Assembly: GCA_022842945.1 (NCBI GenBank)
Contig: JALHOO010000002.1
Span: 103,180-167,179, forward strand
Length of the DNA: 64,000 bases
Reading direction: 5' to 3'
From: Minisyncoccota bacterium
GTDB taxonomy: Bacteria; Patescibacteriota; Minisyncoccia; Phycocordibacterales; Phycocordibacteraceae
Shown: piece by piece, positions 28,540 through 48,516 of the stretch
Numbering within the stretch: the first letter of the stretch is position 1
Layout of the letters: every line of letters begins with the position of its first letter
Notes under the pieces: model-generated
Told to the model about the DNA's origin: nothing
Database searches by the model: none
What the model saw: only the letters and a program-made list of their open reading frames with translations
Program-made: the position numbers and the translations under genes

Positions 28540-28885
28540 AATGATTCCTATCCCCAGAAGGAGGCTTGCGGCGATTAAAGCGCCAGGAATCCAGTATGCA
28601 TCCCGTTCTCCTGCAGTAGCAGTGCGAACAGAAGGTCTCAGAGGGTCAGTTATAGGGGAACCAGGGGATCTTCAGCGTTTCTTCAGAGTACAAAATGGCT
28701 TACCTAAGCCATTCTTGAGTTTCAGATGATCGGTCGATGAAGGTAGTATAAACGCTCCTGAGATAGGGTCAACCACCCGATAATGAGCCTGTTGAGAGTG
28801 GTTTCAGAGCATGAAAAGGACCGAAATCAAGGAACAGGCTCTTGCTTTTGGCGCATGCACGGCACCCAGGTATAGTAGGGAGAGC

Positions 28886-30793
28886 ATGCAACACCTCCAA
28901 GGCTTAAACGACGCACAAAAGGAGGCAGTGCTCACCACCTCAGGACCCGTTTCAGTACTCGCTGGAGCCGGATCAGGCAAAACCCGCGTTCTCACCACCC
29001 GCATATACCACCTTATTAAGGAAGGTGTTCCTGCAGACCGTATTCTTGCCGTTACCTTCACGAATAAAGCTGCCCGCGAGATGCGCGAACGCTTAACGCA
29101 CCGCCTCGGGGATGGCCCTCTCCCGTTTGTGGCAACGTTCCACGGTCTTGGTCGCGAGCTCCTTCAGCGATACGGCACGCGTATAGGCATTCCAAAGTAC
29201 TTCACTATATTTGACCGCGACGACTCGAAGGCGGCTATTCGCCAGGTGCTCAAAGAGATGGATATTGATCCGAAGGAGATGAATCCAAACTTTGTGCTCT
29301 CACGTATCTCGAAAGAGAAGGGGGAAGGGTCCACACCTGCAGAGTTCCGCGACAAATATGCACAGAAAAGTTTCCAGTCTCGTGTTATCGCAGAGGTCTG
29401 GCCGCGGTATGAAGCTATTGTACGCAAAGAGAAGGCGCTTGATTTTGATGATCTCATCTCTCTACCGGTTAGCCTCCTGCGTGATCATGAGGACATACGT
29501 CGCGAAGCAGAGCAGCTCTACAGCCATGTACACGTAGACGAGTTTCAAGACACCAATGGTCTGCAAGGGAAGCTCGCGGGATATCTTTCTGCAGTACATA
29601 ACAATCTGTTTGTTGTGGGAGATATCGATCAGACCATCTACACCTGGCGCGGAGCGACAATCGAAAACCTACTCGGATTCGAAGAGAAGTATGCAGACGC
29701 AAAGACCATCGTCCTTGCGCACAACTACCGCTCCACGAAGACCATCGTTGCAGCCGGGAACCAGATCATCGAAAAGAACCAGAACCGCAAGGACAAGCAC
29801 GCGGTTACAGATAATCCAGACGGGGAACCTATACGTCTGCACGTCGCACGCAATGCAGAGAGCGAAGCTCGATGGGTGGCGCGCGAAACAAAGAAGGCCG
29901 TGCTTGCGGGCACCGCTCCTGAAGAGATAGCCGTGTTGTTCCGTACAAACTTCCAGTCCCGCGCACTTGAAGAAGCATTCTTGAGCGAGAACATCCCATA
30001 CAAGGTTCTCGGTACGCGCTTCCTCGACCGTAAAGAAGTGAAGGATGTGCTCGCGTGGGTACGTCTTGCGCTTGATTCTGAGAGGGAAGTAGACCGAGTT
30101 CGTGCGGTGCAATCGCCAACACGCGGTATTGGAAAGGTAACGCTCGGCAAACTCATAGACGGAAGACGCGACGAGTTGAAGCCTGCAGAACGTACTAAAG
30201 TAGCGGCGTTTGAAGCAATAGTTACCGAGCTTAACGAACTTTCAAAGATTGCGATTCCGTCTGAGTTCGTAAAGCTTGTTATTGAAAAGTCTGGTATTGC
30301 GAGCGCTCTCCAGAAGGGCGGGGAGGAGGATATGGAGCGACTTGAGAACGCAAAGGAGCTTGCCACACTCGCAAGTCGCTACGACGGCATGCCCGGAGAA
30401 GAAGGTATCTCAGCATTCCTTGCAGAGTCGGCACTCGCCGGAGACCAGGACGAGCTCGATGCTCCAGGAAAGAGCGGCGCAACCCTCATGACGGTACACG
30501 CAGCAAAGGGGCTTGAGTTCGATACGGTATTTGTAACCGGCATGGAGGAGGGATTGTTCCCGCACGAAGCGAGGGAAGGGGAGAAGCGGGACGAAGAGGA
30601 AGAGCGCCGTTTGTTCTATGTAGCGGTTACACGCGCAAAACGCAGGCTCAATCTCTCACTCGCAACCGTGCGCCGCATCTACGGCACCGACTTTGCGAGC
30701 GAACCATCCTCATTCATCCGCGACATTGATGAGGGACTTATAACCTTCTCGGAAGGGGAGGATCTGTACGGAGAGCGTACGATATACATCTAG
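28886..30793 (+). CDS. ATP-dependent DNA helicase UvrD/PcrA family
   Basis: Walker A AGAGSGKTRVLTTR and SF1 helicase motifs (DEFQDTN, VGDIDQTIYTWRGA, TVHAAKGLEFD). Start trimmed to the Met before LNDAQKEAV. Confidence 0.9.
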   Translation: MQHLQGLNDAQKEAVLTTSGPVSVLAGAGSGKTRVLTTRIYHLIKEGVPADRILAVTFTNKAAREMRERLTHRLGDGPLPFVATFHGLGRELLQRYGTRIGIPKYFTIFDRDDSKAAIRQVLKEMDIDPKEMNPNFVLSRISKEKGEGSTPAEFRDKYAQKSFQSRVIAEVWPRYEAIVRKEKALDFDDLISLPVSLLRDHEDIRREAEQLYSHVHVDEFQDTNGLQGKLAGYLSAVHNNLFVVGDIDQTIYTWRGATIENLLGFEEKYADAKTIVLAHNYRSTKTIVAAGNQIIEKNQNRKDKHAVTDNPDGEPIRLHVARNAESEARWVARETKKAVLAGTAPEEIAVLFRTNFQSRALEEAFLSENIPYKVLGTRFLDRKEVKDVLAWVRLALDSEREVDRVRAVQSPTRGIGKVTLGKLIDGRRDELKPAERTKVAAFEAIVTELNELSKIAIPSEFVKLVIEKSGIASALQKGGEEDMERLENAKELATLASRYDGMPGEEGISAFLAESALAGDQDELDAPGKSGATLMTVHAAKGLEFDTVFVTGMEEGLFPHEAREGEKRDEEEERRLFYVAVTRAKRRLNLSLATVRRIYGTDFASEPSSFIRDIDEGLITFSEGEDLYGERTIYI

Positions 30794-30794
30794 T

Positions 30795-31574
30795 ATGGTC
30801 TTCGCTAAAAAATCCCTCGGACAGAACTTCCTGATGCATAAGCAGACCGCTGCGCGCATCGTTGGGGCAGCGAACCTTGAGAAGAACGCTCTTGTACTTG
30901 AGGTTGGTCCGGGCACCGGCATGTTAACTAAAGAACTTCTGAAAGCGGGCATGCGCGTTATTGCCGTTGAGGCAGACTACACACTTATACCGGAACTTGA
31001 AGCGAGGTTCATTAAGGAGATCGAAGAGGGGAGACTCACACTCAAGAGTGCAGACATCCGTTCATTTGATACCGGCACCATTACGGAGCCATACGCACTC
31101 GTAGCCAATATTCCGTACTACATAACCGGCGAGATTATTCGCCAGTTCCTTACGGCCCCTAACCAACCTCAGTCCATGACCCTGCTTGTGCAGAAGGAAG
31201 TGGCCGAGCGCATAGCCCGAAGCAAGAAGGAAAGCCTCCTTTCTTTGTCCGTTAAGGTGTACGGGGAGCCTAGCTACTGCTTTACCGTGCCTCGCGGTGC
31301 GTTCGTCCCGGCACCGAATGTAGACTCTGCTGTTCTGCATATACAGGACATTTCGAGGAACTCTTTCTCAAGCGGGGAAGAAGAGGACCGATTCTTCGAA
31401 GTTATACGTGCAGGGTTCGCGCACAAGAGAAAGCGCCTTGCGAAGAATCTAGAGGAGCATTGGTCTAGAGAGGCGGTGACGAGTGCATTTAGCGCAGCCG
31501 GACTTGATACGAATGCACGCTCAGAAGATCTTACACTCGCGCACTGGAATACCGCTGTGAAGACGCTGAGTTAA
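30795..31574 (+). CDS. rsmA: 16S rRNA (adenine1518/1519-N6)-dimethyltransferase
   Basis: KKSLGQNFLMH...VLEVGPGTGMLT SAM-binding motif; NIPYYIT motif. Confidence 0.9.
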   Translation: MVFAKKSLGQNFLMHKQTAARIVGAANLEKNALVLEVGPGTGMLTKELLKAGMRVIAVEADYTLIPELEARFIKEIEEGRLTLKSADIRSFDTGTITEPYALVANIPYYITGEIIRQFLTAPNQPQSMTLLVQKEVAERIARSKKESLLSLSVKVYGEPSYCFTVPRGAFVPAPNVDSAVLHIQDISRNSFSSGEEEDRFFEVIRAGFAHKRKRLAKNLEEHWSREAVTSAFSAAGLDTNARSEDLTLAHWNTAVKTLS

Positions 31575-31641: not shown

Positions 31642-32640
31642 ATGGCTCATTCTACCCGCACACTCCGCATCGGCATCGCTTCATTAGTAGCTATCGTTAT
31701 GGTTGGGGGAACCTTCGCACTCACTGGTCCTGATCCTCTGTTTGGTCTTGGTCGCGTTGCTGAAGCGCAGTCTTCGGAAGAGCTCTTGCGTGAATATGCT
31801 GCTAAAGATACGGACTCTGACAGTCTCCCGGACTGGCAGGAGTCGCTCTATGGGACAGACCCAACAAACCCGGAGTCGTTCCAGGCAGGCATCAAGGACG
31901 GGGATGCGGTTGCACAGGGGCTCATTCAGCCGAAGGTTGCAGTACGCGAGGAAGGCGAGATGACGGATATCGAGACTATCCCAGGAACTACTGCGGCCCC
32001 GAACTCTCTCACAGACCGCTTTGCACAAACACTTCTCAAGCAGTACCTCCAGAACAGGGGAGAGACGCCGCCAACGAGCGCGGAGATTGTTGCGTTTGTT
32101 GAGGCGGGCATTCAGAACCTCGTTGCAGAAAGCGACTCATCCGCTCGCTATGCACTTGCTGACGTGCGGCTGTCTGGAGAGACAGGAACCATTGGACTCC
32201 AGTCCTACGCTGCACAGATGGAAAGTGCATTTGCACGCAACACGGTTGCCGCGAACCGGAACGAGCTTTCCTACTTCTCTGACGCACTTAGCGGAGACAC
32301 GGCTTCTCTCAAGAAGATTGGGGAGATTAGCCAAGCATACAAGAACATCGCGTCTGCACTCATCACAGTACCGGTTCCAAGCGAAGCCCGTCAGGCACAT
32401 CTTTCAATTGCTAACGCGCTCGTACACATGAGTGAGACAAGTGCAGACATGGCAGCCATGGAAACAGATCCGCTTCGCGCACTTATGGGCATCGGACTCT
32501 ACGAGAAGTACGCAACAGAGCTCGTTGCAGGATTCTCTAACCTGCACGGCGTATTTTCTGCACAACAAGTGTCTGTGCCACAGGGAACTGTTGGGTATCA
32601 AGTTATTAAAACAGCGGCAGATGCCGCCGCAAGCAATTAG
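31642..32640 (+). CDS. secreted hypothetical protein, first gene of the T4SS-like cluster
   Basis: Signal peptide/TM IGIASLVAIVMVGGTFALTG. No recognisable motif. Confidence 0.4.
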   Translation: MAHSTRTLRIGIASLVAIVMVGGTFALTGPDPLFGLGRVAEAQSSEELLREYAAKDTDSDSLPDWQESLYGTDPTNPESFQAGIKDGDAVAQGLIQPKVAVREEGEMTDIETIPGTTAAPNSLTDRFAQTLLKQYLQNRGETPPTSAEIVAFVEAGIQNLVAESDSSARYALADVRLSGETGTIGLQSYAAQMESAFARNTVAANRNELSYFSDALSGDTASLKKIGEISQAYKNIASALITVPVPSEARQAHLSIANALVHMSETSADMAAMETDPLRALMGIGLYEKYATELVAGFSNLHGVFSAQQVSVPQGTVGYQVIKTAADAAASN

Positions 32641-32643
32641 CCT

Positions 32644-34068
32644 ATGAACCGCACTTCACATACCCCCCACGCAAAGAAGTTCGCCGCAGGTGCACTTATG
32701 TTTGTGTGTTTGGTTGGTGTTTCAATTCCGCACAAGGCTGAGGCTCAATTTACTGACGCACTTAACCTCGTCCAGAACACTATTCAGGCAGTGTTCAGTT
32801 CTGGAGAGAATGTTAAGGAGTATGTGTTCGATGCGCTCGCATGGCAGGTTGCGAACATGGCCATTGAGTCTATTACAAAGAGCACCGTTAACTGGATTAA
32901 CTCCGGCTTCCAGGGATCTCCTGCATTCGTTACAGATCTGAACGAGAACCTTCGAGGGGTGGGGGATGCGGTTGCCGCCCGCTTCTTTGACGAGCTCTCT
33001 GCACAGACCATTGCTGATACTCCATTCCAGGACAAGGTTCTCGACAGCGTTCGTCTCGCATACTACCTCCGCACCAGTCCTGAATCTTTCTACACACGCA
33101 ATCCGTACACCTTGAATCAGGTTAGTGCGAACGATCGTGCATTCCTTCAAGGAGACTTCAACCAGGGAGGCTTCAATGCCTGGTTCGCAACCGTGATGAA
33201 TCCGCAGAACAATCCGTACGGCGCGCAGATGCTTGCGAACGAAGCACTTGAGAACGCAGTTGCGGGCGCAACAGGTAACCGCCTTGAGGAGCTTTCATGG
33301 AACCGTGGATTCCTTTCATGGAGAGGGGATTGTGCAGTATCAGACGAGACGGACACCATATCACTCACCGGAGCAGACCCGTGTGTGGAGTACAACATCG
33401 ACACGCCAGGGTCCGTTATCATGGAGCAGCTCAACAGCCAGCTTGGTGTTGGTGTGGAGCGTCTTGTCTCTGCTGACGAGTTCAACGAGATCATCGGTGC
33501 ACTCTTGAACCAGCTCGCAAGCCAGGTGCTTGGCGGAGGCAGTGGGGGACTACGCGGTGTGTCGCGTCCTTCAACCGGAGGCGGAGGTTCGTTCCTTGAT
33601 ACAGCGTCCGGTTCTTCTACGGGAAGCGGTGCGGCTATTAGCCGAACATTCTCTTCAACTATAACGAACCAGATTGCACGCATCGATGCATACCGTGCTT
33701 CGTGGGAGAAGATTCGTACTGCAGCAGAGGCAGCACGGCAGCAGTGTGCGAATAACAGCGCGGCGCAGGATGTACTTAACCGCGCAGCTGTTGCTCTAAC
33801 GAAGGCCGCGAATGCGCGGGCAGCACTTCAGGCGATTGAAACCAAGCTTGCTGAGAGCGCGGCGCAGGGAGGAGACAGAACACTGGATCTCCTTGATATC
33901 TCGAACGAGTACAACGAACTCACCGCCTCCGGCGTTCTTCCATCTGCAGAGGAGATTGCAGAGGCACAGAACGAGTCACAGGATACGGGAGACACAGAAC
34001 CAGGTTCGCTATATAGCCAGATGAAGCGTGCATCGTCTGGAAGTTGTAGCGCTAACTCGGGCAACTAG
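32644..34068 (+). CDS. secreted hypothetical protein with Gly-rich segment and C-terminal coiled coil
   Basis: Signal peptide FAAGALMFVCLVGVSIPHKAEA. Starts one codon after the upstream stop, in the same frame. Confidence 0.4.
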   Translation: MNRTSHTPHAKKFAAGALMFVCLVGVSIPHKAEAQFTDALNLVQNTIQAVFSSGENVKEYVFDALAWQVANMAIESITKSTVNWINSGFQGSPAFVTDLNENLRGVGDAVAARFFDELSAQTIADTPFQDKVLDSVRLAYYLRTSPESFYTRNPYTLNQVSANDRAFLQGDFNQGGFNAWFATVMNPQNNPYGAQMLANEALENAVAGATGNRLEELSWNRGFLSWRGDCAVSDETDTISLTGADPCVEYNIDTPGSVIMEQLNSQLGVGVERLVSADEFNEIIGALLNQLASQVLGGGSGGLRGVSRPSTGGGGSFLDTASGSSTGSGAAISRTFSSTITNQIARIDAYRASWEKIRTAAEAARQQCANNSAAQDVLNRAAVALTKAANARAALQAIETKLAESAAQGGDRTLDLLDISNEYNELTASGVLPSAEEIAEAQNESQDTGDTEPGSLYSQMKRASSGSCSANSGN

Positions 34069-34070
34069 AT

Positions 34071-36674
34071 ATGCAGAAGCTCCTACGAGCGTCACTTCTT
34101 GTAGCGACTCTGTCGGTGCTTTTGTTTGTGAGTGGGCATGGCGCTGTCAGTGCGCAGACCCCACCTCCTGCTCCTGACCCCACACCCACACTTGAAGATA
34201 AAGGGCAGGCCGGAGCGTACGACCAAAGTGCTGTTGCGAGACTGCGGGATGCTTGTTTCGCGGCTAATGGTGGTGATCGGATTGGGTGTGCTGTTGAAAA
34301 CAGCCCTGCAGGCGGAAGTACTTCGTGTGAAGCCGTTGGCTTGTTGCCGCCAAGAATCAGGTGCGAGGCTAAGTTCCCTGATGGCAGCAGGATCATCTCT
34401 CAACAAGGAATATCCAACTCCTGGGTAAACAGTTATTACGGCTCACCCGAAGACGATGATCCGCTGGTACGCGACCCAGGACTAGGGGATGACGTAGGTG
34501 ACGAAGAGGATGTTGCAGCCGTTACAAATGTTGGCAGGTCTTGTACGGAAGGGGATGTTGTTAGTTGTCTCCGAAATCTGCCTGGGATGCTCTTTACTGG
34601 AATCGCGTTTCTTTTTCTTACGCTCTCCGGGTTTGTTCTGGGACTTGCGGGCACCGTCTTTAACTGGGTTGTTATACGAACCGTATTCCAATTCGGAACA
34701 TACTTTGGCACCAACGAAGGCATGCTCATAGCGTGGGGAGTTATGCGAGATGTTGCAAACATTGGTCTTCTGTTCGGGTTCATTCTCATGGGGGTTCTTC
34801 TCATACTGAATGTTGAAGGCGGCGGAGGGCACGGCCATGGCGGAGGGATGAGTGCAAAGAAGGCGATTCCTCGCTTGATTATCTTTGCTGTTCTTCTTAA
34901 CTTCAGTCTCTTTGCTTCTCAACTTGTTATCGATGTAGCAAACGCATTCAGCTCTAGCTTTGCAACACTCGCAGGAGAATCTTGTTCGACAAATACTTCG
35001 ACCGGAACAAATGCTGACAATAGTGCGCAAGACAACGATGCCTGCGCAAACATTGGTATTGCGGGACAGGTACTTAAGGTAACAGGCCTAACGGCATTGT
35101 GGGACACAGAGGCTCTTGATATAGAGACGGGAATGAAGAATCTTGTTGATCGACCGTACTCCTACGCTGTGTCGCTCATCATGCTTTCCATATTTGTGCT
35201 CATAACCGCAATGGTGCTTCTTGCTGGTGCAATTATGCTCATCATTCGTGTAGTTATTCTGTCATTGCTCATGGTTACCTCGCCAGTTGGATTTGCTGGT
35301 ATGGCGATACCAAAGCTTCAAGGTATAGCTACGATGTGGTGGAGCAAGCTCATGTCACAAGCATTCTTTGCGCCGGTCTACCTTCTCCTCATATTCATCA
35401 GCATCAAGCTGACCGAGGGCCTAACAGAAGGGAACGCGACTCTTGCGAACGCACTTATTGCTAATGAGGGCAATTCAGTAGCGGGAAACATGCAGGTGGT
35501 TATGGTGTTCCTGATTGTTATTGGATTCATGATCGGCTCGCTTATTGCTGCTACGAAGATGGGAGCAATGGGCGCAAGCTTCGCAACAAATGCCGCGAGC
35601 GCTCTTGCGTTCGGAGCAGTCACTCGTGGTGCAAACTTTACGACCGGAGGGGCAGCGTACGGACTAAGACGCATCCAGCAGAAAACCGGTTTTGGGGGAC
35701 GTGTAGGTGAAGTGATGGTAAATCGTGGCCTGCGTCCGTTAGAGAAAGCGAATCTTGACCTGCGACGCATTCCAGGAATGGCCGGAGGTCTTGGTGCTGC
35801 AGGCATATCAGCAGGAGCTAAGGCAGCGGAACATGCGACATATGCCGATATTGCACATCAGTTCTCTGACATAAAAGCAGGCAAGGAAGGACAGAAGCTT
35901 CACGAAGAATACGATCAGGAGAAGAAGAATATGATGCTTGAAGACAATGCGCATCATGGCGGAATGACTTCAGATGACAAGGCACACCTTGCTTCCCTAT
36001 CTACGAAGGAACTTGAGCAGCTTCATGGAGTCAAGGAGGGCGTACAGCAGCTTGCAGAGAATTTGAGTCCTGAACAGTTTGAGAACCTAATGAAGAGCGA
36101 CAAGCTTACAGATATCGAGAAGGGGACCCTTAAGTCTGGTCGCTTCTCGTCCTTGAATGAGGCGGCTGCATCTGGCCGCGGAGCAGACGTGAAGAATCTA
36201 ATGAAGACCATGAGCAAGAAGGATCTTGAGAACGCGCCGAATGGCGTACTCCTACAGCCGCTTGTTCTCGAGAATCTTTCTGATCAGCAGCGTGAGGACC
36301 TTGTTAAGAGCGACAAGCGAACACCAGCCGAAAAGGCTGCCATAAAGGCTTCGTACGCAAACGAGGTTCTGAAAACAGTCTTTACAGGGGCAGGTGGTGG
36401 TGCAGCAGGGGCGGCAGCAGTCATCGCACACCCAAAGTATGGTTCTGTGTCTACAGCTCAGTTCGCTGAACTTGGTGTTGATATACTTCAGCAGTCATCT
36501 ATTGCCCAGAACATTCCGGTATCGGTACTTGAAAAGATTGTTAAGGACAATAAGTTGAGTCCTGCGGAGATGAAGCTTGTTGGAGCACAGATGGAGGCAG
36601 CCGTCGCAGCGGGCACAGCCTCAGCTGGAGTAAGAGGATATATGGCAAGTCCTAAGGGAGATTTCTGGAGGTAA
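34071..36674 (+). CDS. VirB6/TrbL-like polytopic membrane protein with long C-terminal repeat-containing extension
   Basis: Signal peptide, a large extracytoplasmic N-domain, then about 6 TM helices (...SLIMLSIFVLITAMVLLAGAIMLIIRVVILSLLMVTSPVGFAGMAIP...). C-terminal hydrophilic region has repeated ENL..Q.EDLVKSDK.T..EK units. Confidence 0.5.
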   Translation: MQKLLRASLLVATLSVLLFVSGHGAVSAQTPPPAPDPTPTLEDKGQAGAYDQSAVARLRDACFAANGGDRIGCAVENSPAGGSTSCEAVGLLPPRIRCEAKFPDGSRIISQQGISNSWVNSYYGSPEDDDPLVRDPGLGDDVGDEEDVAAVTNVGRSCTEGDVVSCLRNLPGMLFTGIAFLFLTLSGFVLGLAGTVFNWVVIRTVFQFGTYFGTNEGMLIAWGVMRDVANIGLLFGFILMGVLLILNVEGGGGHGHGGGMSAKKAIPRLIIFAVLLNFSLFASQLVIDVANAFSSSFATLAGESCSTNTSTGTNADNSAQDNDACANIGIAGQVLKVTGLTALWDTEALDIETGMKNLVDRPYSYAVSLIMLSIFVLITAMVLLAGAIMLIIRVVILSLLMVTSPVGFAGMAIPKLQGIATMWWSKLMSQAFFAPVYLLLIFISIKLTEGLTEGNATLANALIANEGNSVAGNMQVVMVFLIVIGFMIGSLIAATKMGAMGASFATNAASALAFGAVTRGANFTTGGAAYGLRRIQQKTGFGGRVGEVMVNRGLRPLEKANLDLRRIPGMAGGLGAAGISAGAKAAEHATYADIAHQFSDIKAGKEGQKLHEEYDQEKKNMMLEDNAHHGGMTSDDKAHLASLSTKELEQLHGVKEGVQQLAENLSPEQFENLMKSDKLTDIEKGTLKSGRFSSLNEAAASGRGADVKNLMKTMSKKDLENAPNGVLLQPLVLENLSDQQREDLVKSDKRTPAEKAAIKASYANEVLKTVFTGAGGGAAGAAAVIAHPKYGSVSTAQFAELGVDILQQSSIAQNIPVSVLEKIVKDNKLSPAEMKLVGAQMEAAVAAGTASAGVRGYMASPKGDFWR

Positions 36675-36679
36675 TATCT

Positions 36680-37402
36680 ATGGCACGATTCACACAAGAA
36701 CAACTTTTGGAAGCATATCGAAGGGCGCCAGAGGCGATTCAGGATACCTATGGCAGCGAACTAATGGCTGGTGTAATTAACGACATTAAGACGAGATTTC
36801 GCTTACACGTAGATGTGGTTGGCAGTATTGAGAGGGAGGTGGGATATCTCATGCTGGGACTGATTAGCCCTGCGGAGTTCTTTGGTAGCCTTATGCTTTC
36901 AGGGACAGACGAGCAGTCCGCTAGAGGAATTATGGAGGAGGTGAACCAGCGAATCTTTATTCCGCTCAAGAGGAGAATGTCAGGAGTGACGCAGGCTCCT
37001 GTAATGGAAGGGACGTATGCGAACACTCCCGAGAGACCTGTGCGAGAGCCTGCAGTACCAACGCCGGCACTTGATTATGAAGCCCCCGCAACCCTTCCAG
37101 GATCACCAGTGGCGGCCCCAATGCCTTTGGCAGTAAGCACGCCTCCTTCTGTGGTGGTTTCTGAGTCCTCACCAATCTCTATGGAGGCCCCGAAAGTGAC
37201 ACCCGCCGCCGAAACAACGGGTTCGCCTGCCCCTGCAGGCAATGTTGCGAACAATACTTATACTCCACCGACTTTTATCGCATCTCCTGCAGCACCCAGA
37301 GCGAGCGCTCCCGTACAGCCGGTTTCAGTGCCAGTCCAACCAAAGCCAGAAAGTCCCCTTAAGAAAGAAGGTTGGGCAGATCCATATCGTGAACCGATAT
37401 AA
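36680..37402 (+). CDS. hypothetical Pro-rich protein
   Basis: 240 aa, C-terminal Pro/Ala/Val-rich low-complexity half. Confidence 0.35.
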   Translation: MARFTQEQLLEAYRRAPEAIQDTYGSELMAGVINDIKTRFRLHVDVVGSIEREVGYLMLGLISPAEFFGSLMLSGTDEQSARGIMEEVNQRIFIPLKRRMSGVTQAPVMEGTYANTPERPVREPAVPTPALDYEAPATLPGSPVAAPMPLAVSTPPSVVVSESSPISMEAPKVTPAAETTGSPAPAGNVANNTYTPPTFIASPAAPRASAPVQPVSVPVQPKPESPLKKEGWADPYREPI

Positions 37403-37446
37403 AATCACTAGTTTGAAACGCGCTTAGGTCCTGCTACTATTTTAGT

Positions 37447-37920
37447 ATGTCTGAGAACCCTCCCCGAACCTTACCTAACGAACCCGGTGAACAGATGGTG
37501 GAGGCGAACAATCCAGAATCTTCAGGAGAGAACAGTGGCGATTCGCAAGAAACAGGCCCGCAGCCAGGAACATCTGTCGCAGAAACCATCCTCGCTGATG
37601 AGCGCGAGGCCATAGCGCAGGGTCGCCGCGCTGAGACCCTAGAGAATCTTAGGAGGCACGCGGATGCTTCGCCGCGAGCGGAGGAAACTAATCCTGGTAG
37701 TACCACCCATACAACAAGGGCACCCGCTGCTGTTCATAAGCAGGGCGGGCGTATTGGTGCTTCGGTACTAGGCACCGGCAAGAATATTTTTGCACTCTTT
37801 GGCCTGTTCGGCTCATGGATCTTAATGGCTCTCAAAGGCGCAGGGGCCATGGCAGGCAAAGGAGGCGGCGGAGGTGGTGGTCACGCCAAGAAGGATGATC
37901 ACGGGGGCGGACATCATTAG
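37447..37920 (+). CDS. hypothetical protein with one TM helix and a Gly/His-rich tail
   Basis: C-terminus ...GKGGGGGGGHAKKDDHGGGHH. Confidence 0.3.
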   Translation: MSENPPRTLPNEPGEQMVEANNPESSGENSGDSQETGPQPGTSVAETILADEREAIAQGRRAETLENLRRHADASPRAEETNPGSTTHTTRAPAAVHKQGGRIGASVLGTGKNIFALFGLFGSWILMALKGAGAMAGKGGGGGGGHAKKDDHGGGHH

Positions 37921-37984
37921 CGTCCACAGTACGAACGTGAGGAATTTAGCAGTCGGCGAGAACCGACTGCTATACTTATAGGTA

Positions 37985-38389
37985 ATGGAGTACCAAGTAC
38001 CGCAGTTCATCGAAGTAGAGGATAAGATTTTCGGACCCTTCACGCTGAAGCAGTTCATCTATGTAGCCGGCGGGGTAGGGCTCTGCGCTATTCTTGTTCT
38101 GTATTTCCCGCTCATCATTGGCCTCATCCTCGCGCTTCCAGTAGCTGCGTTCACAGCAGCTCTCGCGTTCTACAAGATAAACAACAAGCCGTTCGTTGAA
38201 ATCATGGAAGCAGCCTTTAACTACTACATCGGGGACCGCCTGTATCTCTGGAAGAAGGAGAAGAACCAAGTAGATGCACCGGTTGCTGTGAAGCCTGCGG
38301 ACCCAGAGAAGCTCGGCCTAACCCAGAGCAAACTCAAAGACCTCGCCTGGTCTCTTGATATCAAGGATCAAAACAACACCCCTTCCTAA
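37985..38389 (+). CDS. VirB3/PrgI-like small membrane protein
   Basis: 134 aa; MEYQVPQFIEVEDKIFGPFTLKQFIYVAGGVGLCAILVLYFP... followed by two TM helices. Immediately precedes the VirB4-like ORFs in the same frame. Confidence 0.4.
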   Translation: MEYQVPQFIEVEDKIFGPFTLKQFIYVAGGVGLCAILVLYFPLIIGLILALPVAAFTAALAFYKINNKPFVEIMEAAFNYYIGDRLYLWKKEKNQVDAPVAVKPADPEKLGLTQSKLKDLAWSLDIKDQNNTPS

Positions 38390-38392
38390 TCT

Positions 38393-39025
38393 ATGGCTCC
38401 TACTAAGACTACGCAGTCATTTGTGCCGGTAAAAGAAGTACGCAACGGTGTTGTGGTACTTAAGAACGACGGGTACCGAGGGATTCTCATGTGCTCCTCT
38501 ATTAACTTCGCCTTGAAAGGGGAGGACGAGCAGCGCGCTATTATCGGCGGATTCCAGAGCCTTCTTAATACGCTCGATTTCTCTATACAGATCGTGGTGC
38601 ACTCTCGAAAAACTGATATTCGTCCATACCTCGCACTCCTTGAGACGCGCATGCAGGAACAGTCTACGGAGCTCATGCGTCTCCAGCTGCGCGAGTACAT
38701 CGCCTTCATCAGGAACTTCATCGACTCGAGCGACATTATGACGAAGCTCTTCTACGTCGTTGTCCCATATGCTCCTGGCGCCGGAGGTATTGTATCGAGC
38801 ACACCATCCTTCCTTGGGGGAACGAAGCGCCCCGCAACAGACGGCACGAGCGATTCATTCGAAGAGAACCGCGTACAGCTAGAGCAGCGCATGGCACTTG
38901 TGGTGCAGGGCTTGGCTGCAAGCGGGGTGCGTGCCGTGCCGCTTGGCACCGAGGAGGTTATCGAGCTTCTATACCGCTCATTCAACCTCTCTGAGCTTGA
39001 GAACCCTATTCATCTTTCTGCATAA
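38393..39025 (+). CDS. VirB4-family ATPase, N-terminal domain fragment encoded as a separate ORF
   Basis: 210 aa; ...PVKEVRNGVVVLKNDGYRGILMCSSINFALKGEDEQRAIIGGFQSLLNTLDFSIQIVV... resembles VirB4/TraC N-terminal region. Ends TAA; the next ORF starts 3 nt later in the same frame. Confidence 0.5.
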   Translation: MAPTKTTQSFVPVKEVRNGVVVLKNDGYRGILMCSSINFALKGEDEQRAIIGGFQSLLNTLDFSIQIVVHSRKTDIRPYLALLETRMQEQSTELMRLQLREYIAFIRNFIDSSDIMTKLFYVVVPYAPGAGGIVSSTPSFLGGTKRPATDGTSDSFEENRVQLEQRMALVVQGLAASGVRAVPLGTEEVIELLYRSFNLSELENPIHLSA

Positions 39026-39028
39026 TCT

Positions 39029-40852
39029 ATGGCACTCCTCGACTTCCTCGGAAAGAATAAGGGCGACGAAACACCAAGCATGGCACCAGTCCTTCCAAAG
39101 GACATCTATGCAGAAGGGGAGCTGAAGCTCGCTGACGCTATCGCGCCGGCGGCCCTCAAGGTTGGAGCCCGCGAGCTTGAGCTAGGGGAGAAGGTATCTC
39201 GCTCGTTCTACACCATTTCCTACCCACGCTTCCTCGTTGATAGCTGGTTCACACCAATCATCAACCTCGACAAGGTATTCGATGTTTCTATTTTCATTCA
39301 TCCCGTTGAAACCGGTTCAGCACTCCGCGGCTTCCAGAAAAAGGTTGCTGAGATTGAGAGTCAGATCTCTGACAGGGAAGAGAAGGGGTTAGTGCGCGAC
39401 CCGATGCTCGATACCGCGTACCGCGACCTTGAGCAGCTGCGTGACCAGCTTCAGCAGGCAGAAGAGCACATCTTTGAAGTGGGGCTCTACATAACACTCT
39501 ACGGAAACTCGAAGGAGGACCTCGACAAGATCGAAGGGGACGTGCGCGGCATCCTCGACGCCAAGCTCGTATATACGAAGCCAGCACTCTTCCAGCAGGA
39601 GCAGGGATTCCGCTCGACACTTCCGCTCGCGACCGACGAGCTCCAGGTTACAAGCAAGCTCAACTCCTCTCCGCTCTCTTCCATATTCCCGTTCGTGTCC
39701 TTCGACCTCACGAGTGACCGCGGCATTCTCTACGGTATCAACCGCCACAACGCCTCGTTGATTCTTTTCGACCGCTTCTCCCTTGAGAACTACAACTCGG
39801 TTGTGTTCGCAAAGTCTGGTTCCGGAAAGTCCTATGCCGTTAAACTCGAGATTCTTCGTTCCTTGATGTTCGGCACTGACGTTATTGTTATCGACCCTGA
39901 GCGCGAGTACGAGAACCTGGCATCTGCCACAGGAGGACGTACCTTCAACATCTCGCTCTCGTCCGAGCACCACATCAATCCGTTCGACTTGCCGCCGGTT
40001 AAGGAAGACGAGGAGCCGTCTGACATCCTTCGCTCGAACATCATTAATCTCGTGGGTCTATTCCGTCTCATGCTCGGAGGACTTTCGCCTGAGGAGGACG
40101 CGATTATCGATCGCGCAATAACGGAGACCTACGCCCTTAAGGACATCACCGGGGACAGCGACTTCACTGGCATCGAACCGCCGATTCTCTCGGACTTCGA
40201 GAACGTGCTTTCCGGCATGGAGGGCTCAGAATCCCTTGTTATACGCCTTTCCAAGTACACGCACGGTACCTGGGCTGGGTTCATTAACCAGCCGACGAAC
40301 ATCGACATAAACAAGCAGTTCATCGTGTTCTCTGTGCGCGACATGGAGGACGAGCTGAAGCCTATTGCGATGTACATCATCACGCACTACATCTGGAACG
40401 CGGTCCGCCACGAACTCAAGAAACGCCTTCTCATAATCGACGAGGCGTGGTGGATGATGAAGTCAGACGACACCGCGTCCTTCCTCTACAGCCTTGCTAA
40501 GCGCGGCCGTAAATACTATCTGGGTGTTGCAACCGTCACCCAAGACGTTGAGGACTTCCTCCGCTCTCCATACGGCCGTCCTATCCTTACGAACTCGTCC
40601 ATGCAGTTGCTCTTGAAGCAGTCTCCAACAACCATCAACGTCCTCAAGGAGACCTTTAACCTTACAGACGAGGAGAAATTCCTTCTTCTTGAGTCTGGAG
40701 TGGGGGAGGGTCTCTTCTTCGCAGGCCTTAAGCACGTGGCTATTAAGATTGTTGCGTCCTACACCGAGGACCAGATCATAACCTCAGACCCGAGCCAGTT
40801 GCTCCAGATCAAGCAAGAGAAGGCACGAAACGACGCGGGGCTCGCGGCCTAG
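39029..40852 (+). CDS. VirB4/TrbE/CagE-family type IV secretion ATPase, motor domain
   Basis: Walker A VVFAKSGSGKSYAV, Walker B RLLIIDEAWWMM; 607 aa. Together with the previous ORF it approximates a full-length VirB4 of about 820 aa. Confidence 0.8.
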   Translation: MALLDFLGKNKGDETPSMAPVLPKDIYAEGELKLADAIAPAALKVGARELELGEKVSRSFYTISYPRFLVDSWFTPIINLDKVFDVSIFIHPVETGSALRGFQKKVAEIESQISDREEKGLVRDPMLDTAYRDLEQLRDQLQQAEEHIFEVGLYITLYGNSKEDLDKIEGDVRGILDAKLVYTKPALFQQEQGFRSTLPLATDELQVTSKLNSSPLSSIFPFVSFDLTSDRGILYGINRHNASLILFDRFSLENYNSVVFAKSGSGKSYAVKLEILRSLMFGTDVIVIDPEREYENLASATGGRTFNISLSSEHHINPFDLPPVKEDEEPSDILRSNIINLVGLFRLMLGGLSPEEDAIIDRAITETYALKDITGDSDFTGIEPPILSDFENVLSGMEGSESLVIRLSKYTHGTWAGFINQPTNIDINKQFIVFSVRDMEDELKPIAMYIITHYIWNAVRHELKKRLLIIDEAWWMMKSDDTASFLYSLAKRGRKYYLGVATVTQDVEDFLRSPYGRPILTNSSMQLLLKQSPTTINVLKETFNLTDEEKFLLLESGVGEGLFFAGLKHVAIKIVASYTEDQIITSDPSQLLQIKQEKARNDAGLAA

Positions 40853-40855
40853 CGT

Positions 40856-41362
40856 ATGGCAGCACCTCACAAGATAGGGAACGTAACGGCTGGTTTCATG
40901 GTCGCAATCGCCTTGCTTGTGGACGGTGTCCAGGCACTTCTAACGCTCTCTGTGTTCCTGCTTCCGTTATCTGTTCTTGCCACGTTCTTTTCTATAACCA
41001 TGTTCTTTTTATGGTTTGGCATCCTGGGGGTGAAGTACACCGGAAACGGGGGAGGGAAGAAACTCTTGATTATGCTCGCTACAACCGTAGCTGAAATAGC
41101 GCCGGTTATAAACGCACTTCCTGCTACAACTGCGGGGGTCATTGGGGTGATCGTTCAGACTCGCATTGAGGACGCTCGAGCTTCTGTAGAGGGGAATGTA
41201 ACCCCAAACACCGCGATGGCATACGCTCGCCAAAGACGAATGCAGGCTGCCCGCGTCAACCGCCAGGACTCAGCGCGAGAGGGTAGGGAAGAGGTTCAAA
41301 ATGCTCGCCACTCAGAACCTGCTAACGACAATTCGGGAGAGTCGTACCGCAGCGCGGCATAA
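40856..41362 (+). CDS. hypothetical membrane protein (3 TM helices)
   Basis: 168 aa. Same reading frame as the three preceding ORFs, TAG-CGT-ATG junction. Confidence 0.35.
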   Translation: MAAPHKIGNVTAGFMVAIALLVDGVQALLTLSVFLLPLSVLATFFSITMFFLWFGILGVKYTGNGGGKKLLIMLATTVAEIAPVINALPATTAGVIGVIVQTRIEDARASVEGNVTPNTAMAYARQRRMQAARVNRQDSAREGREEVQNARHSEPANDNSGESYRSAA

Positions 41363-41409: not shown

Positions 41410-42399
41410 GTGCGTATGATACGCGCGCTACTTCTAGCGATTCTTCTTATCGGCACAAGCATTCCCGCAGCGCTTGCTCAGGGACTTCCCGGAACAGACC
41501 CGCTTACACTCGTCGTTTCTCCGCAGTATCCGCGACCATACCAAACCGTGAGTATTGCACCGAGAAGCTCACTTCTCGACCTCTCAGCGAGCACGGTGCG
41601 GGTTTCGGTAGACGGGGAACGGGTATATGAGGGAAGTGGTACTCAAGCAACTAATGTTCGTGCAGGAGCTCTAGGAGAGCGCACCACGGTTTCAGTGTCT
41701 GTTACGGATCCAGACGGCCGTGTCTATACAAAGACGCAGGTACTTCGTCCCGCAGAAGTGTCGTTGATACTGGAACCCGCCTCAACAGCACACCCTTTCT
41801 ATAGGGGTGGGGGGTTGGTTGCCTCAGAGGGCAGGGTGCGTCTTATCGCTGTGCCTGATTTGAGAAGCGCTCCGGGCACACGTCTCCCCGCATCGTCCTT
41901 GGTATACACCTGGCGTCTTGGAGACCGTATCCTTACGGACTCTTCCGGTATTGGGCGCTCTACACTAACGGCAGAAGCACCCGTCCGCTATCGCAATGCA
42001 AACATAAGCGTAACCGTAACGAGCCCAGACAGCTCTTTGGTAGGGGAGGCGAGAACGGTTGTGTCAGCGGTTGATCCGACTGCTCGTATGTATCGCAACG
42101 ACCCTCTCCTTGGACCAAACTTTGATGTAGCGCTTAGTGATCGGTTCTCTATGCCAGATACTGAGGCAACCTTCCGTGCAGTTGGATACTTCTTCGCAAC
42201 ACCTCCAACATTCGCGTGGACCGTTAACAACACAACCAACGGCACCGACAAGGACCTCACCGTCCGCGCTACCGGCAACGGACAGGGGGCTGCTCGTCTC
42301 GGCGTTACCGTAACGGAGCCTGCAAGTAGGCGCTCTGCTGAGAGTCGCGTAACCGTAGACTTCGGTGCGTCCACTGGCTTTGGATTCTTTGGCCTATAA
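41410..42399 (+). CDS. secreted hypothetical protein
   Basis: Signal peptide MRMIRALLLAILLIGTSIPAALAQG. Beta-rich sequence with repeated VTVT-type segments. Confidence 0.4.
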   Translation: MRMIRALLLAILLIGTSIPAALAQGLPGTDPLTLVVSPQYPRPYQTVSIAPRSSLLDLSASTVRVSVDGERVYEGSGTQATNVRAGALGERTTVSVSVTDPDGRVYTKTQVLRPAEVSLILEPASTAHPFYRGGGLVASEGRVRLIAVPDLRSAPGTRLPASSLVYTWRLGDRILTDSSGIGRSTLTAEAPVRYRNANISVTVTSPDSSLVGEARTVVSAVDPTARMYRNDPLLGPNFDVALSDRFSMPDTEATFRAVGYFFATPPTFAWTVNNTTNGTDKDLTVRATGNGQGAARLGVTVTEPASRRSAESRVTVDFGASTGFGFFGL

Positions 42400-42403
42400 C
42401 ACT

Positions 42404-43243
42404 ATGAAATACCTTTCTTTTCTCGTACTTTTCTTCGGACTCCCACTCATGGCACTCGCACAGAGCACCGACATTGGGAGTGGGTTCGTACCTCTTACGA
42501 ATATTCCAATCCTTGCTCAGACCGGAAACTCATTCAGTCTCGATCAGTTCCTGAACGGTCTCTACAGAATCTGTATTGGTATAGCGGCAGTGCTCGCGGT
42601 GCTCCAGATCATGCGCGCGGGCATCATGTACATGGGAGGAGACAGCGTTACGGAGAAGAAGGAGGCCAAGAACCTCATTGCTATGGCTATTGGGGGACTT
42701 ATTTTGGTGCTTTCGCCAGTTGTTGTGTTCTCGGTTATTAATCCAGAGATTCTTACACTGAAGATTAATAACATCGAGGAACTTGCTCCGGAAGAACCAG
42801 CGACACCAACACCACCCATCACACTTCCGAGCACCGAACAGGGTGTGTGCAGCATCACGTATGTTGAAAGGCGTGAGGCACCGAACTGTAGTGCACTTGG
42901 CTCCGATTGGGAGACAGCGAGTCTTTCGTGCTGTGTGTCTTTCACGGGAGGCTTCTGTTGTGGCCGCAAGCCGCAAACTCCTTCGACGCCAGACACCACT
43001 GCGGGCTTCAGATATCGAATTGCCGTACAAGACACTGATTCAAGAAACCCTGATTTTCTATATCAGAGTCGTTCCTGCGTTCGTTACGAAGAGGGAACGG
43101 AGGCGAATCAAATAGCGTGCGTTGGTGCACTTGAAGCAGAGAAGATTCAGCTTCAAGGAAAACAGTATCAAGTTGTGAAGGAGTGTGTTGGACAGGAAGC
43201 TACTACGCACGCATATACAAACCTACCGACCTGTACACCTTAG
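42404..43243 (+). CDS. VirB2/TrbC-like pilin with long Cys-rich C-terminal extension
   Basis: Signal peptide, then two hydrophobic segments (LYRICIGIAAVLAVLQIMRAGIMYMGG...LIAMAIGGLILVLSPVVVFSVI) as in VirB2. A C-terminal tail of about 150 aa has 13 Cys. Track start 42365 trimmed to MKYLSFLVL. Confidence 0.4.
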   Translation: MKYLSFLVLFFGLPLMALAQSTDIGSGFVPLTNIPILAQTGNSFSLDQFLNGLYRICIGIAAVLAVLQIMRAGIMYMGGDSVTEKKEAKNLIAMAIGGLILVLSPVVVFSVINPEILTLKINNIEELAPEEPATPTPPITLPSTEQGVCSITYVERREAPNCSALGSDWETASLSCCVSFTGGFCCGRKPQTPSTPDTTAGFRYRIAVQDTDSRNPDFLYQSRSCVRYEEGTEANQIACVGALEAEKIQLQGKQYQVVKECVGQEATTHAYTNLPTCTP

Positions 43244-43246
43244 TTT

Positions 43247-44470
43247 ATGAACCGCCGCATCCTCGTTATCGTTGCAAGTATCATCGTCCTCATAGGGCTT
43301 CTTGTGGGTGGGTACTATCTGTTCTTCGCGAACGGAGCCTCTCTCTCTGTAGGGTTGCCTGGAGACCCATTCGGTTCAAGCGGAGACCGTGATCAAACAG
43401 GGCTTCTAGGACCAGACGGTCAACCTATTCAAGGAGCCGGAACGGTGGTGGCACCGCGTCTCATCCGTATCTCTGATGCTCCTGTGGCAAAGGGCGCTAT
43501 TGCACTCTACATCCCGCCAGTTCTTCCGGTTGGCACTTCGACCGATCCTGAGATTCCTGCTGACACTGAGGTTCGCTTCATCGAGCGTCAGAGCGGGAAC
43601 ATCTACGCATTCCGCGTTCATGATCGCGTGCTCACACGCGTAAGCAACCGCACTCTTCCAGGTATTCAGGAAGCAACATGGAGCTCAGACGGGTCTCGTG
43701 CCTTTGCGCGCTATCTCACCCGTGCTGCAGACGGCACTGAGCACATTGATACCTATGCGCTTCCTGCAGACGGTGGGGAAGGGTACTTCTTAGAGCAGGA
43801 CCTTGAGCAGGTTGCGGTGCAGGGTTCAACAACCGTCTTCTCACTCCTTCCAAACTCAACCGGCTCTATAGGAAGCCTTTCAAATACAGACGGCACAAAC
43901 GTCAGTACACTCTTCACGTCCGCTCTCTCTCGCCTGCATGCCGGCTTCTCAGGCAACGACCTCGTACTTGCCACTAAGGCCTCAAGCGGACTCGATGGCT
44001 ATGCATTCCTCGCATCAAGGACAACAGGTGCGTTCACGCGCATTCTAGGACCCCTCAGAGGCCTCGCTGTACTTCCGAACACCGAAGGCACGTCTGTTCT
44101 TTACAGTTATGCTGATGCAGGACGTGTGTACCTACAGGTCCTCGACCTCTCAACCAGAAACTCAACCGCACTTCCGCTCGTTACACTCGCTGAAAAGTGT
44201 ACCTGGGCACCTGGAGGACGTGCCGTCTACTGCGGCGTACCAACCGCGCTCGCAGGAAACGTACCAGACGAGTGGTACCAGGGCGCAAAGACATTCTCTG
44301 ATCGCATTTGGCGCATTGATCTTGATACACGCCTCGCAACGCTAATCGTTGACCCGGGGACCGTTGCAGGTGTTGCTATTGATGCAGTTGCTCTTACGGT
44401 TGACCCAGTAGGGGACACTCTAGTGTTCACGAATAAGAAAGATGGCACACTCTGGGTATACGACCTCTAG
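43247..44470 (+). CDS. membrane-anchored hypothetical protein, possible beta-propeller-like ectodomain
   Basis: N-terminal TM ILVIVASIIVLIGLLVGGYYLFF. Repeated ...DG.....Y.. segments (TWSSDGSRAFARY, WAPGGRAVYCG, DGTLWVYDL). Confidence 0.35.
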   Translation: MNRRILVIVASIIVLIGLLVGGYYLFFANGASLSVGLPGDPFGSSGDRDQTGLLGPDGQPIQGAGTVVAPRLIRISDAPVAKGAIALYIPPVLPVGTSTDPEIPADTEVRFIERQSGNIYAFRVHDRVLTRVSNRTLPGIQEATWSSDGSRAFARYLTRAADGTEHIDTYALPADGGEGYFLEQDLEQVAVQGSTTVFSLLPNSTGSIGSLSNTDGTNVSTLFTSALSRLHAGFSGNDLVLATKASSGLDGYAFLASRTTGAFTRILGPLRGLAVLPNTEGTSVLYSYADAGRVYLQVLDLSTRNSTALPLVTLAEKCTWAPGGRAVYCGVPTALAGNVPDEWYQGAKTFSDRIWRIDLDTRLATLIVDPGTVAGVAIDAVALTVDPVGDTLVFTNKKDGTLWVYDL

Positions 44471-47415: not shown

Positions 47416-48516
47416 ATGATTATTACTTTAGATAAGAAAGAATTCTCTGAAGGAGTGCAGACGGTTGCACGCTTTGCAGAGCGACGGAGCGGTACGCTTC
47501 CAGTGCTCGCTGGTATCGCAATCATTGCAGGGGATGATGGCATCAAACTTCGGGCAACCAATCTCGAGACAGGTATTGATCTCAAGGTGGAGGGAACCAT
47601 AAAGAGCGACGGGGTTGTAGCGCTCCCCGCGAACACCCTTCGTGATATTGCCTCTTCTCTGTCAGGAACAGGCACTCTTACGCTCGAGCACACTGGCGAC
47701 ACGGTTCTCGTAAGCACCGGAAACGGGCGCAGTACGCTCAAGACCCTTCCGTTCGAGGATTTCCCTACACTTCCGCTTCCCGAGTCTCCACGAGCGAAAT
47801 TCGAGCTTCCAGGTGCACTTCTACGCTCTCTTGTTATGGCAGTCTCTCCCTATGCTTCCGTATCAACGGTGCGTCCTGAACTTGCTTCTGTTCTTATTAA
47901 GAGCGAAGGAAATATCCTTAAGGCTGTTGCGACAGATTCCTTCCGTCTTGCGGAGAAGAAGATATCGCTTTCAAGTGCGGTTGAGGAGTTCTCCATGCTT
48001 ATTCCCGCAAAGAATGCAGGAGATATTATGCAGACACTTCCAGACGAAACTATCTCCATCTCAGTTGATGAGCATCAGTGTGCCTTCTTCTGGAAGAAGG
48101 GCGTCCTTACAACCCGTCTCGTTACGGCAAACTATCCTGACTACACCCAGATTATCCCGAAGAGCTTTGTGTCTGAGGCAACAGTCCTCAAGAAAGACTT
48201 TGAGACAGCACTTCGCAGAACCGCTATCTTCTCCGATACGTTCCAGAAGGTACGTCTTGGGTTTGATGCAGGAGCTAAAGCAGTTGCGCTCTCTGCGCAG
48301 AATGCAGACGTGGGGGACTCAAACGAATCTATCCCTGCAGCAGTTACAGGTGACGCGGTTGATCTATCCTTCAACCATCGTTACCTCTCAGCTCCCATAG
48401 GAAGTATTGCAACGGAAAGCGTTACGCTATCTGCAAGCGGTATAGGACGGGCCATGGTTATGCGAGGAGCAGGGGACACATCATTCTTGTATCTCGTGAT
48501 GCCGATGAATCAGTAA
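47416..48516 (+). CDS. dnaN: DNA polymerase III beta subunit (sliding clamp)
   Basis: 366 aa, three-domain clamp organisation. Canonical position after dnaA. Confidence 0.9.
   Translation: MIITLDKKEFSEGVQTVARFAERRSGTLPVLAGIAIIAGDDGIKLRATNLETGIDLKVEGTIKSDGVVALPANTLRDIASSLSGTGTLTLEHTGDTVLVSTGNGRSTLKTLPFEDFPTLPLPESPRAKFELPGALLRSLVMAVSPYASVSTVRPELASVLIKSEGNILKAVATDSFRLAEKKISLSSAVEEFSMLIPAKNAGDIMQTLPDETISISVDEHQCAFFWKKGVLTTRLVTANYPDYTQIIPKSFVSEATVLKKDFETALRRTAIFSDTFQKVRLGFDAGAKAVALSAQNADVGDSNESIPAAVTGDAVDLSFNHRYLSAPIGSIATESVTLSASGIGRAMVMRGAGDTSFLYLVMPMNQ

Follow-up and report, generated by a model that had tools for sequence, protein, structure and literature searches.

The 64,000-nucleotide (nt) stretch of Minisyncoccota contig JALHOO010000002.1 analysed here, called the window below, contains a type IV secretion system (T4SS) core characterized by four open reading frames (ORFs) that follow one another between positions 37985 and 41362: prgI, trsD, virB4 and the gene of a small membrane protein. 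These are probably four separate, tightly packed cistrons of a chromosomal, origin-proximal T4SS operon, in a Patescibacterium of Paceibacteria type, in which VirB4 is permanently split, the common reading frame has no function, and expression would proceed from a leaderless mRNA with re-initiation at the downstream genes. The gene set itself and the occurrence of the VirB4 N-domain as a stand-alone protein (TrsD) are already known for Patescibacteria.

Read in a single frame on the forward strand, the region 37985-41362 comprises 1,126 codons whose sole interruptions are three stop codons. Coordinates and translation thus bear out the preliminary description of this DNA, which had placed the four ORFs in one frame, and each of the three junctions does consist of a stop, 3 nt and ATG-GCN (Table 1). 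The view that the stops are not sequencing errors was also upheld. An independent check was provided by the Logan assembly of run SRR28154525 (L082), which matches the window at 100% identity along 1,171 nt that contain junctions 1 and 2, and the stops are kept across relatives. The positions 38390-38392 and 39026-39028, at which a re-inspection of the stops had been advised, are actually the spacer codons. The 11-mer TAATCTATGGC occurs as two exact copies in the window, solely at junctions 1 and 2. It is composed of the stop TAA and a recurrent start context, TCTATGGC, shared by 4 of the roughly 60 genes in the window. Two starts can be considered for the fourth ORF, 40856 and 40898, the later ATG from which the NCBI copy is annotated as a protein of 154 amino acids (aa). 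Since the ATG located 3 nt past the virB4 stop is kept in close relatives with a detected fourth gene while the residues that follow it vary, the evidence favours the 168-aa form.

The identities first proposed for the four products, a PrgI/VirB3-like protein, a VirB4 N-domain, a VirB4 ATPase and a membrane protein, all hold according to profiles, fold and hydropathy. The 134-aa ORF matches Pfam PF12666 PrgI (38.9 bits for a cut-off of 27, E 1.3e-9); its product, assigned to the inner membrane, has a single hydrophobic hairpin at residues 20-65 and its gene lies in the neighbourhood of virB4. The 607-aa ORF matches NCBIfam NF045971 conju_CD1110 (371.7 bits for a cut-off of 325, E 7e-111) over model positions 183-733 of 752, and in Pfam it is recognized by P-loop_TraG, AAA_10 and DUF87. 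The first ~180 positions of the CD1110 model are absent from this ORF and are matched instead by the preceding 210-aa ORF, at positions 2-101 of 752 (E 1.9e-5). The latter also aligns with positions 102-233 of 894 of NCBIfam VirB4_plasma (E 3.5e-8). The two products are therefore collinear with one full-length VirB4 of monoderm type, as had been stated from their lengths. The cut falls within the N-terminal domain, and the 607-aa VirB4 corresponds to the second half of that domain followed by the P-loop C-terminal domain.

The relationship of the 210-aa protein to known families was traced by profiles and by its predicted fold. Its match to NCBIfam NF041427 TrsD/TraD is weak (17.6 bits, E 2.5e-3, far under the cut-off of 200), and hhalign of its profile with staphylococcal TrsD covers 173 columns with a probability of only 53% (E 1.4e-4). 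No Pfam match was obtained even to E <= 10 in a scanned set that did not include PF26593; this family, 'TraC-like', is the precomputed annotation carried by P0121, a protein 100% identical to the 210-aa protein, and by related proteins. PDB sequences searched with a profile of the N-domain alignment (81 sequences) yielded no relative, and matches came from the fold search alone. An AlphaFold2 model built from 81 diverse homologues reached a pLDDT of 87.7. When it was searched against the PDB with Foldseek, the top 14 matches were all R388 TrwK/VirB4 with probabilities of 0.99-1.0 and TMq values of 0.38-0.56 (13 of the 14 at 0.52-0.56), the next match having an E-value of 0.38. Taken with the profile matches, the modelled fold indicates that the 210-aa protein is a stand-alone, TrsD-like protein homologous to the first portion of the N-terminal domain of VirB4/TraC. 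The fourth protein displays hydrophobic segments at residues ~10-60 and 70-100 and ends in a charged C-terminal tail. No Pfam or NCBIfam family matches it, and it has only 35 homologues at E <= 1e-3, all unnamed and 38-100% identical, which is the picture of a fast-evolving family.

Conservation of the junctions was followed in 80 related loci, each fetched from a different species-level genome of Paceibacterota, Kaiserbacteria or other Patescibacteria represented by metagenome-assembled genomes (MAGs), with 62-89% identity in ORF2, the 210-aa protein. The prgI-trsD and trsD-virB4 junctions could be assessed in 78 of the 80, and the fourth gene was detected in 23. An alignment of orthologues had been suggested as a way to see whether the stops are conserved: a stop separates the N-domain gene from the ATPase gene at the homologous place in 78 of 78 assessable related species. 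When ORF2 and ORF3 were concatenated as a query, the result was over 100 close homologues, 604-613 aa long, that cover the ORF3 part alone. An exhaustive ORF2 search retrieved 2,262 relatives, and the ATPase part is missing from 149 of the 150 best cluster representatives of the N-domain protein, most of which measure 195-260 aa. Longer members of the family (300-443 aa) end in disordered C-terminal tails and likewise lack the ATPase part. Several candidate exceptions were discarded: P0340 is an apparent frameshifted fragment, and P0276, P0383 and P0384, which might have passed for PrgI-TrsD fusions, have low-complexity Q/P-rich N-terminal extensions without a PrgI domain. In P0052, an 846-aa 'VirB4' (contig L081:2060-4600), the stop between trsD and virB4, a TGA lying in frame, was translated as Trp, presumably because genetic code 4 was applied to a code-11 organism. 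The fission of VirB4 is ancient, and Gram-positive plasmids of the pGO1/pSK41 type share it in their TrsD/TrsE pair.

The lengths of the spacers, in contrast to the presence of the stops, vary from one relative to another. Between prgI and trsD they measure 1 nt (26 loci), 2 (20), 5 (11), 4 (9), 3 (4) or -4 (4). Between trsD and virB4 the values are 3 nt (23 loci), 2 (15), 1 (14), 33 (5), 4 (4), 5 (4), 6 and so on up to 552-978. The spacer between virB4 and the fourth gene, where detectable, is mostly 3 nt, with an ATGA overlap (-4) in 4 loci. Overall the spacers span -8 to 978 nt, some of them with whole genes inserted, and the stop codon at the junctions may be TAA, TAG or TGA. In the 11 closest relatives, the prgI-trsD spacer is 2, 3, 4 or 5 nt and the trsD-virB4 spacer is 3 nt throughout; junction 1 of the window is matched by none of the close relatives.

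Frame relations, which were read from tblastn frames and are hence independent of start-codon choice, follow the same pattern. The prgI-trsD junction is in frame in 6 of 78 loci, the trsD-virB4 junction in 37 of 78 and the junction of virB4 with the fourth gene in 17 of 23. All three are in frame in L005 alone; from the marginal frequencies, this state would be expected in about 3% of genomes. Fitch parsimony on a neighbour-joining tree of 67 taxa, which gives lower bounds, requires at least 22 frame changes for prgI-trsD and at least 28 for trsD-virB4, the latter being indistinguishable from shuffled tips (mean 30, range 23-35). Selection was considered as the cause of the multiple-of-three excess at trsD-virB4 (the 37 of 78 loci, including spacers of 33, 36, 102, 552, 879 and 978 nt) and was rejected, the distribution being near-random on the tree. 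The excess is attributed to shared ancestry and to frame-preserving shifts of stops and starts by substitution, frame being altered by indels alone. A spacing of 3 nt is more frequent than any other between same-strand neighbours in the window (5 of 41 pairs, including 32640 to 32644 and 43243 to 43247), and when the 13 spacers of the operon were shuffled, a run of three 3-nt spacers appeared in 31% of trials. It had been anticipated that the arrangement would be a coincidence if related genomes carried separate genes with unrelated spacers, and such genomes are what we found. The common frame is best read as a chance outcome of very short spacers, without function, and as one of several equivalent states of 1-5 nt among which the junctions drift.

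Expression of the operon can be approached through the sequence ahead of prgI. A TANNNT hexamer, nearly always TATACT, precedes the prgI ATG by 6-9 nt in 75 of 75 related loci (7-8 nt in 74 of them) and is usually preceded by G or TG, the remaining upstream sequence being divergent among relatives. The only purine-rich match before this ATG is a weak AGGT at -5, within the predicted leader of 0-2 nt. The conserved -10 hexamer predicts a leaderless or near-leaderless transcript for prgI and the T4SS core. The window as a whole is poor in Shine-Dalgarno (SD) sequences: an SD-like tetramer (GGAG, GAGG or AGGA at -20 to -5) was found for 5 of 60 genes, compared with 15% at random positions. In parallel, TANNNT ends 5-10 nt before the ATG in 18 of 40 genes with at least 25 nt free upstream, for a background of 5%. 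Together, these two features suggest that leaderless mRNAs are widespread in this genome. No paper linking Patescibacteria to leaderless translation was found in the literature.

None of the downstream genes shows such signals. No SD-like motif lies ahead of the trsD or virB4 starts, and that of the membrane-protein gene has just GGGG at -19. No -10-like hexamer is located 5-10 nt before the ATG of trsD, virB4 or the membrane-protein gene; the sole hexamers there, TAATCT and CATAAT, lie over the stop codon and leave just 0-2 nt before the ATG. TTGAGA-18-CATAAT (38997-39026), which lies over the trsD stop, was rejected as a virB4 promoter, its hexamer being 2 nt from the ATG instead of the typical 5-10. 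No convincing internal promoter or terminator was seen in the operon.

A GC-rich hairpin with a 10-bp stem stands between the upstream 157-aa gene and prgI and overlaps the start of the -10 box. Its stability (-20.1 kcal/mol, z = -4.14) was equalled in 0 of 200 shuffles, and palindromes of other sequence are found at the same spot in relatives including L002, L005, L012, L013 and L030. It is possibly a terminator of the upstream unit, devoid of a U-tract, or an operator or other regulatory site.

From these elements the following course can be proposed. A leaderless mRNA covering prgI, trsD, virB4 and perhaps the membrane-protein gene would start from the TATACT promoter, and ribosomes would load at the prgI ATG. 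For the downstream cistrons, which have neither SD nor promoter of their own, ribosomes would finish one gene and start again at the ATG just beyond it, and such a chain would hold the subunits in fixed proportion. The N-terminal ~200 residues of VirB4 would be made as a separate TrsD-like protein and the remainder as the 607-aa ATPase, both pieces presumably joining PrgI at the membrane in a non-covalent assembly. For termination-reinitiation, neighbouring genes have to overlap or to lie very close together, and genes for subunits of heteromeric complexes are enriched for it (PMC10666635); spacers are 3 nt here and at most 5 nt at most junctions in the 80 species. When this mechanism was first put forward for the locus, it was as the rescue of a broken gene. 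It stands as a reasonable route for translating the downstream genes, not as a rescue.

Several observations weigh against this account. The leaderless start and the translational coupling are both predictions from sequence. According to an E. coli study as reported in PMC10666635, a +3-nt arrangement can lower coupling about tenfold relative to a -4 overlap, so that de novo SD-independent initiation may contribute. Moreover, trsD and virB4 are 33-978 nt apart in some relatives; coupling is therefore not obligatory there, and virB4 must be initiated independently in those genomes. Finally, a covalent link between the two parts of VirB4 is tolerated, as seen from P0295 (797 aa, L084, GCA_964615945.1), a genuine uninterrupted TrsD-VirB4 fusion and the sole true one found. 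Its junction (L084:1195-1215) reads CGC CAA GGG ATG GGC, and CAA GGG ATG is one substitution (T to C) from the TAA-NNN-ATG type of the window. Either the two genes were re-fused here when the stop was lost, or the MAG has a wrong base at this point.

The rival explanation that keeps the most weight, even if we judge it unlikely, is that the genes are separate and each initiated independently, by SD-independent de novo initiation or from internal promoters giving leaderless mRNAs, the short spacers reflecting compaction alone. The genome is small, dense (~90% coding) and SD-poor, so some SD-independent route must exist in it. The distances of 33-978 nt just mentioned, with inserted genes included, and the weak coupling attributed to +3-nt spacers in that one E. 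coli study point the same way, as does the absence of structure at the junctions: 90-nt windows around them fold no better than shuffled controls (z +0.9, +0.37 and +0.37). Independent initiation from internal promoters is, however, at odds with the lack of a -10-like hexamer at the proper distance from the downstream ATGs. In addition, the products are subunits of one complex, a class enriched for coupling, and the great majority of spacers at these junctions in the 80 species do not exceed 5 nt, which fits selection for stop-start proximity.

Two further explanations, both raised when the locus was first described, deny that the genes are plainly separate. Programmed readthrough of the TAA, TAA and TAG stops would produce PrgI-TrsD-VirB4 fusion isoforms, with or without the membrane protein, beside the separate proteins. 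The four in-frame ORFs with their 3-nt spacers could be taken in that sense, together with the 3-nt trsD-virB4 spacer of all 11 closest relatives, an in-frame share at that junction somewhat over one third, and the L084 fusion, according to which a fused product can presumably function. Nevertheless, the frame is lost in 41 of 78 loci at trsD-virB4 and in 72 of 78 at prgI-trsD, by at least 22-28 independent changes, and the prgI-trsD spacer ranges over 2-5 nt even in the 11 closest relatives. The in-frame excess is expected without selection, as explained above. The identity of the stops is not conserved, and two of the three are TAA followed by T, the strongest termination context in E. coli. 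The folding test revealed no RNA structure at the junctions beyond that of shuffles, no suppressor tRNA is present among the 9 tRNAs of the window, all of them ordinary, many TrsD-like proteins end in disordered C-terminal tails of their own, and three genomes have an element of 0.55-0.98 kb inserted between trsD and virB4. Free variation of frame, spacers of -8 to 978 nt and variable stops thus contradict readthrough, which we hold to be highly improbable.

The other explanation, to which we give practically no credence, is that an intact virB3-virB4 fusion gene was recently broken by nonsense codons and is decaying as a pseudogene, or that the stops result from assembly or sequencing error. 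It could appeal to the canonical VirB4, a single chain of ~800 aa, and to the VirB3-VirB4 fusions known in some conjugative systems according to work cited in PMC12102498. An error is countered by the identical sequence of the independent L082 assembly, and a recent breakage by the presence of the stops at the homologous place in 78 of 78 species whose proteins are 62-89% identical. The downstream ORFs all open with a conserved ATG of their own, homologues of the N-part number more than 2,000, the ATPase scores above the cut-off of its curated family, and both halves are well conserved. The same split, already published, is shared with the TrsD/TrsE pair of staphylococcal plasmids, and the TrsD homologue of Ca. 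Southlakia epibionticum ML1 is reported to be essential (Wang et al. 2023, as cited in PMC12102498).

The closest known counterpart is the T4SS core of Patescibacteria themselves. Quinonero-Coronel et al. 2025 described PrgI-TrsD-VirB4 as a common core in this group, with 2,272 TrsD homologues of which 1,664 adjoin virB4, without VirB3-VirB4 fusions and often near dnaA, dnaN and ksgA (PMC12102498). The locus studied here has the same three proteins in the same order and the same chromosomal setting (ksgA, dnaA, dnaN), and differs from it in nothing essential; spacers, frames, promoters and the translation of the cistrons are matters on which that paper is silent. Close homologues of the window genes come from Paceibacterota/Parcubacteria MAGs. 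A literature search on split VirB4 found nothing, and Guglielmini et al. 2014 do not name TrsD in their main text.

Outside Patescibacteria, this gene order recurs on the staphylococcal plasmid pTZ361 (NZ_CP098651.1, pGO1/pSK41-type, MPF_FATA), with a TrsC-like gene for a small VirB3-like membrane protein, trsD (227 aa) and a TrsE-like gene (670 aa). By BLASTP, residues 35-574 of the 607-aa VirB4 align with residues 33-615 of the plasmid ATPase (E 3e-38), the two having a homologous start point. The similarity is remote (25% for the ATPase), the spacers of pTZ361 are -14 and +20 nt, and the plasmid system serves conjugation and includes a relaxase; the present one is chromosomal. Canonical TrwK/VirB4 (R388, PDB 7O41/8RTD) has a fold like that of the 210-aa protein, and the Walker A and B motifs are present; the difference from canonical VirB4, TraC and TrwK is that the N-terminal ~200 residues are here a separate polypeptide. 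VirB3-VirB4 fusion proteins have no equivalent in our data: no VirB3 fusion was found, and among the relatives L084 alone fuses the VirB4 parts. With the termination-reinitiation systems of Huber et al. (2019, PMC6728339; 2023, PMC10666635) the locus shares same-strand genes for subunits of one complex and close stops and starts, the downstream genes here being without SD. The usual overlap in those systems is -4 or -1, compared with mostly +1 to +5 nt at the present junctions, where coupling is a prediction.

For annotators, it follows that these ORFs are not to be merged, nor labelled as pseudogenes or recoding sites. By its position, the conserved -10 box predicts that transcription of the T4SS core begins at the prgI ATG and, with the SD-poor genome, it offers a testable expression model for an essential machine in an uncultivated phylum. 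Leaderless and SD-free expression would also explain why the cistrons are held within a few nt of each other. More tentatively, it is possible that the essential T4SS core of Paceibacteria is translated as an SD-free re-initiation chain from a leaderless prgI mRNA and that its VirB4 is in ongoing fission and re-fusion, as the in-frame 3-nt state is one substitution from fusion, of which L084 is an example.

Table 1. Positions in the window of the T4SS core genes, their junctions and other features
Feature	Position	Strand	Remark
GC-rich hairpin	37947..37972	+	10-bp stem TAGCAGTCGG/CCGACTGCTA; between upstream 157-aa gene and prgI
-10 hexamer TATACT	37971..37976	+	8 nt before prgI ATG
prgI / VirB3-like gene	37985..38389	+	134 aa
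Junction 1, TAA TCT ATG GCT	38387..38395	+	stop TAA 38387-38389
trsD-like gene	38393..39025	+	210 aa
Junction 2, TAA TCT ATG GCA	39023..39031	+	stop TAA 39023-39025
virB4 ATPase gene	39029..40852	+	607 aa
Walker A, AKSGSGKS	39809..39832	+	VirB4 residues 261-268; read from translation
Walker B, LLIIDEAW	40427..40450	+	VirB4 residues 467-474; read from translation
Junction 3, TAG CGT ATG GCA	40850..40858	+	stop TAG 40850-40852
Small polytopic membrane protein gene	40856..41362	+	168 aa (154 aa if start = 40898)
VirB2-like pilin gene	42404-43243		279 aa; weak T4SS_pilin/TrbC match
uvrD and ksgA	28811-31574		ksgA 30795-31574
dnaA	45854-47203		near T4SS core
dnaN	47416-48516		near T4SS core

The core is flanked by further ORFs, mostly without family: upstream (31642-37920) they encode proteins of 332, 474, 867, 240 and 157 aa, and downstream (41416-44470) of 327, 279 and 407 aa. 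These flanking genes are tightly spaced (3, 2, 5, 4 and 3 nt) and are likely to specify further T4SS components. No relaxase was seen adjoining virB4.

Some of the longer spacers between trsD and virB4 have features of their own. Three relatives have inserted elements of 552-978 nt that fill precisely the space from the trsD stop to the virB4 ATG (L063:4628-5503, L043:1903-2865 and L044 ~600-1160). Inverted repeats of 17 nt bound those of L063 (perfect) and L043 (94% complementary), and none was detected for that of L044. In L063, two overlapping perfect repeat pairs reach ~24 nt (TAGGCTCTAGGCGCTAG... / ...CTAGCGCCTAGAGCCTA), and the element encodes a four-helix-bundle protein (TIGR02436, E 1e-34) of a type known from 23S rRNA intervening sequences. 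As a speculation, the long stem of such an inserted element might be cut by RNase III to yield a near-leaderless virB4 mRNA. In addition, L051, L054, L066, L078 and L079 have in common an AT-rich 33-nt spacer, TGA TTTTTAAACTTTTA(C/A)ATATTTAAATATTTCACC ATG, which may hold a separate virB4 promoter; L041 has a related spacer of 36 nt.

Among the other contents of the window, Rfam recognized tRNAs only. One of them, tRNA-Trp(CCA) at 17427-17516, is 90 nt long instead of the usual 71-76 nt and may contain an insertion. Stop codon usage over the 64 genes called in the window displays an unusual preference for TAG (34 genes) over TAA (22) and TGA (8).

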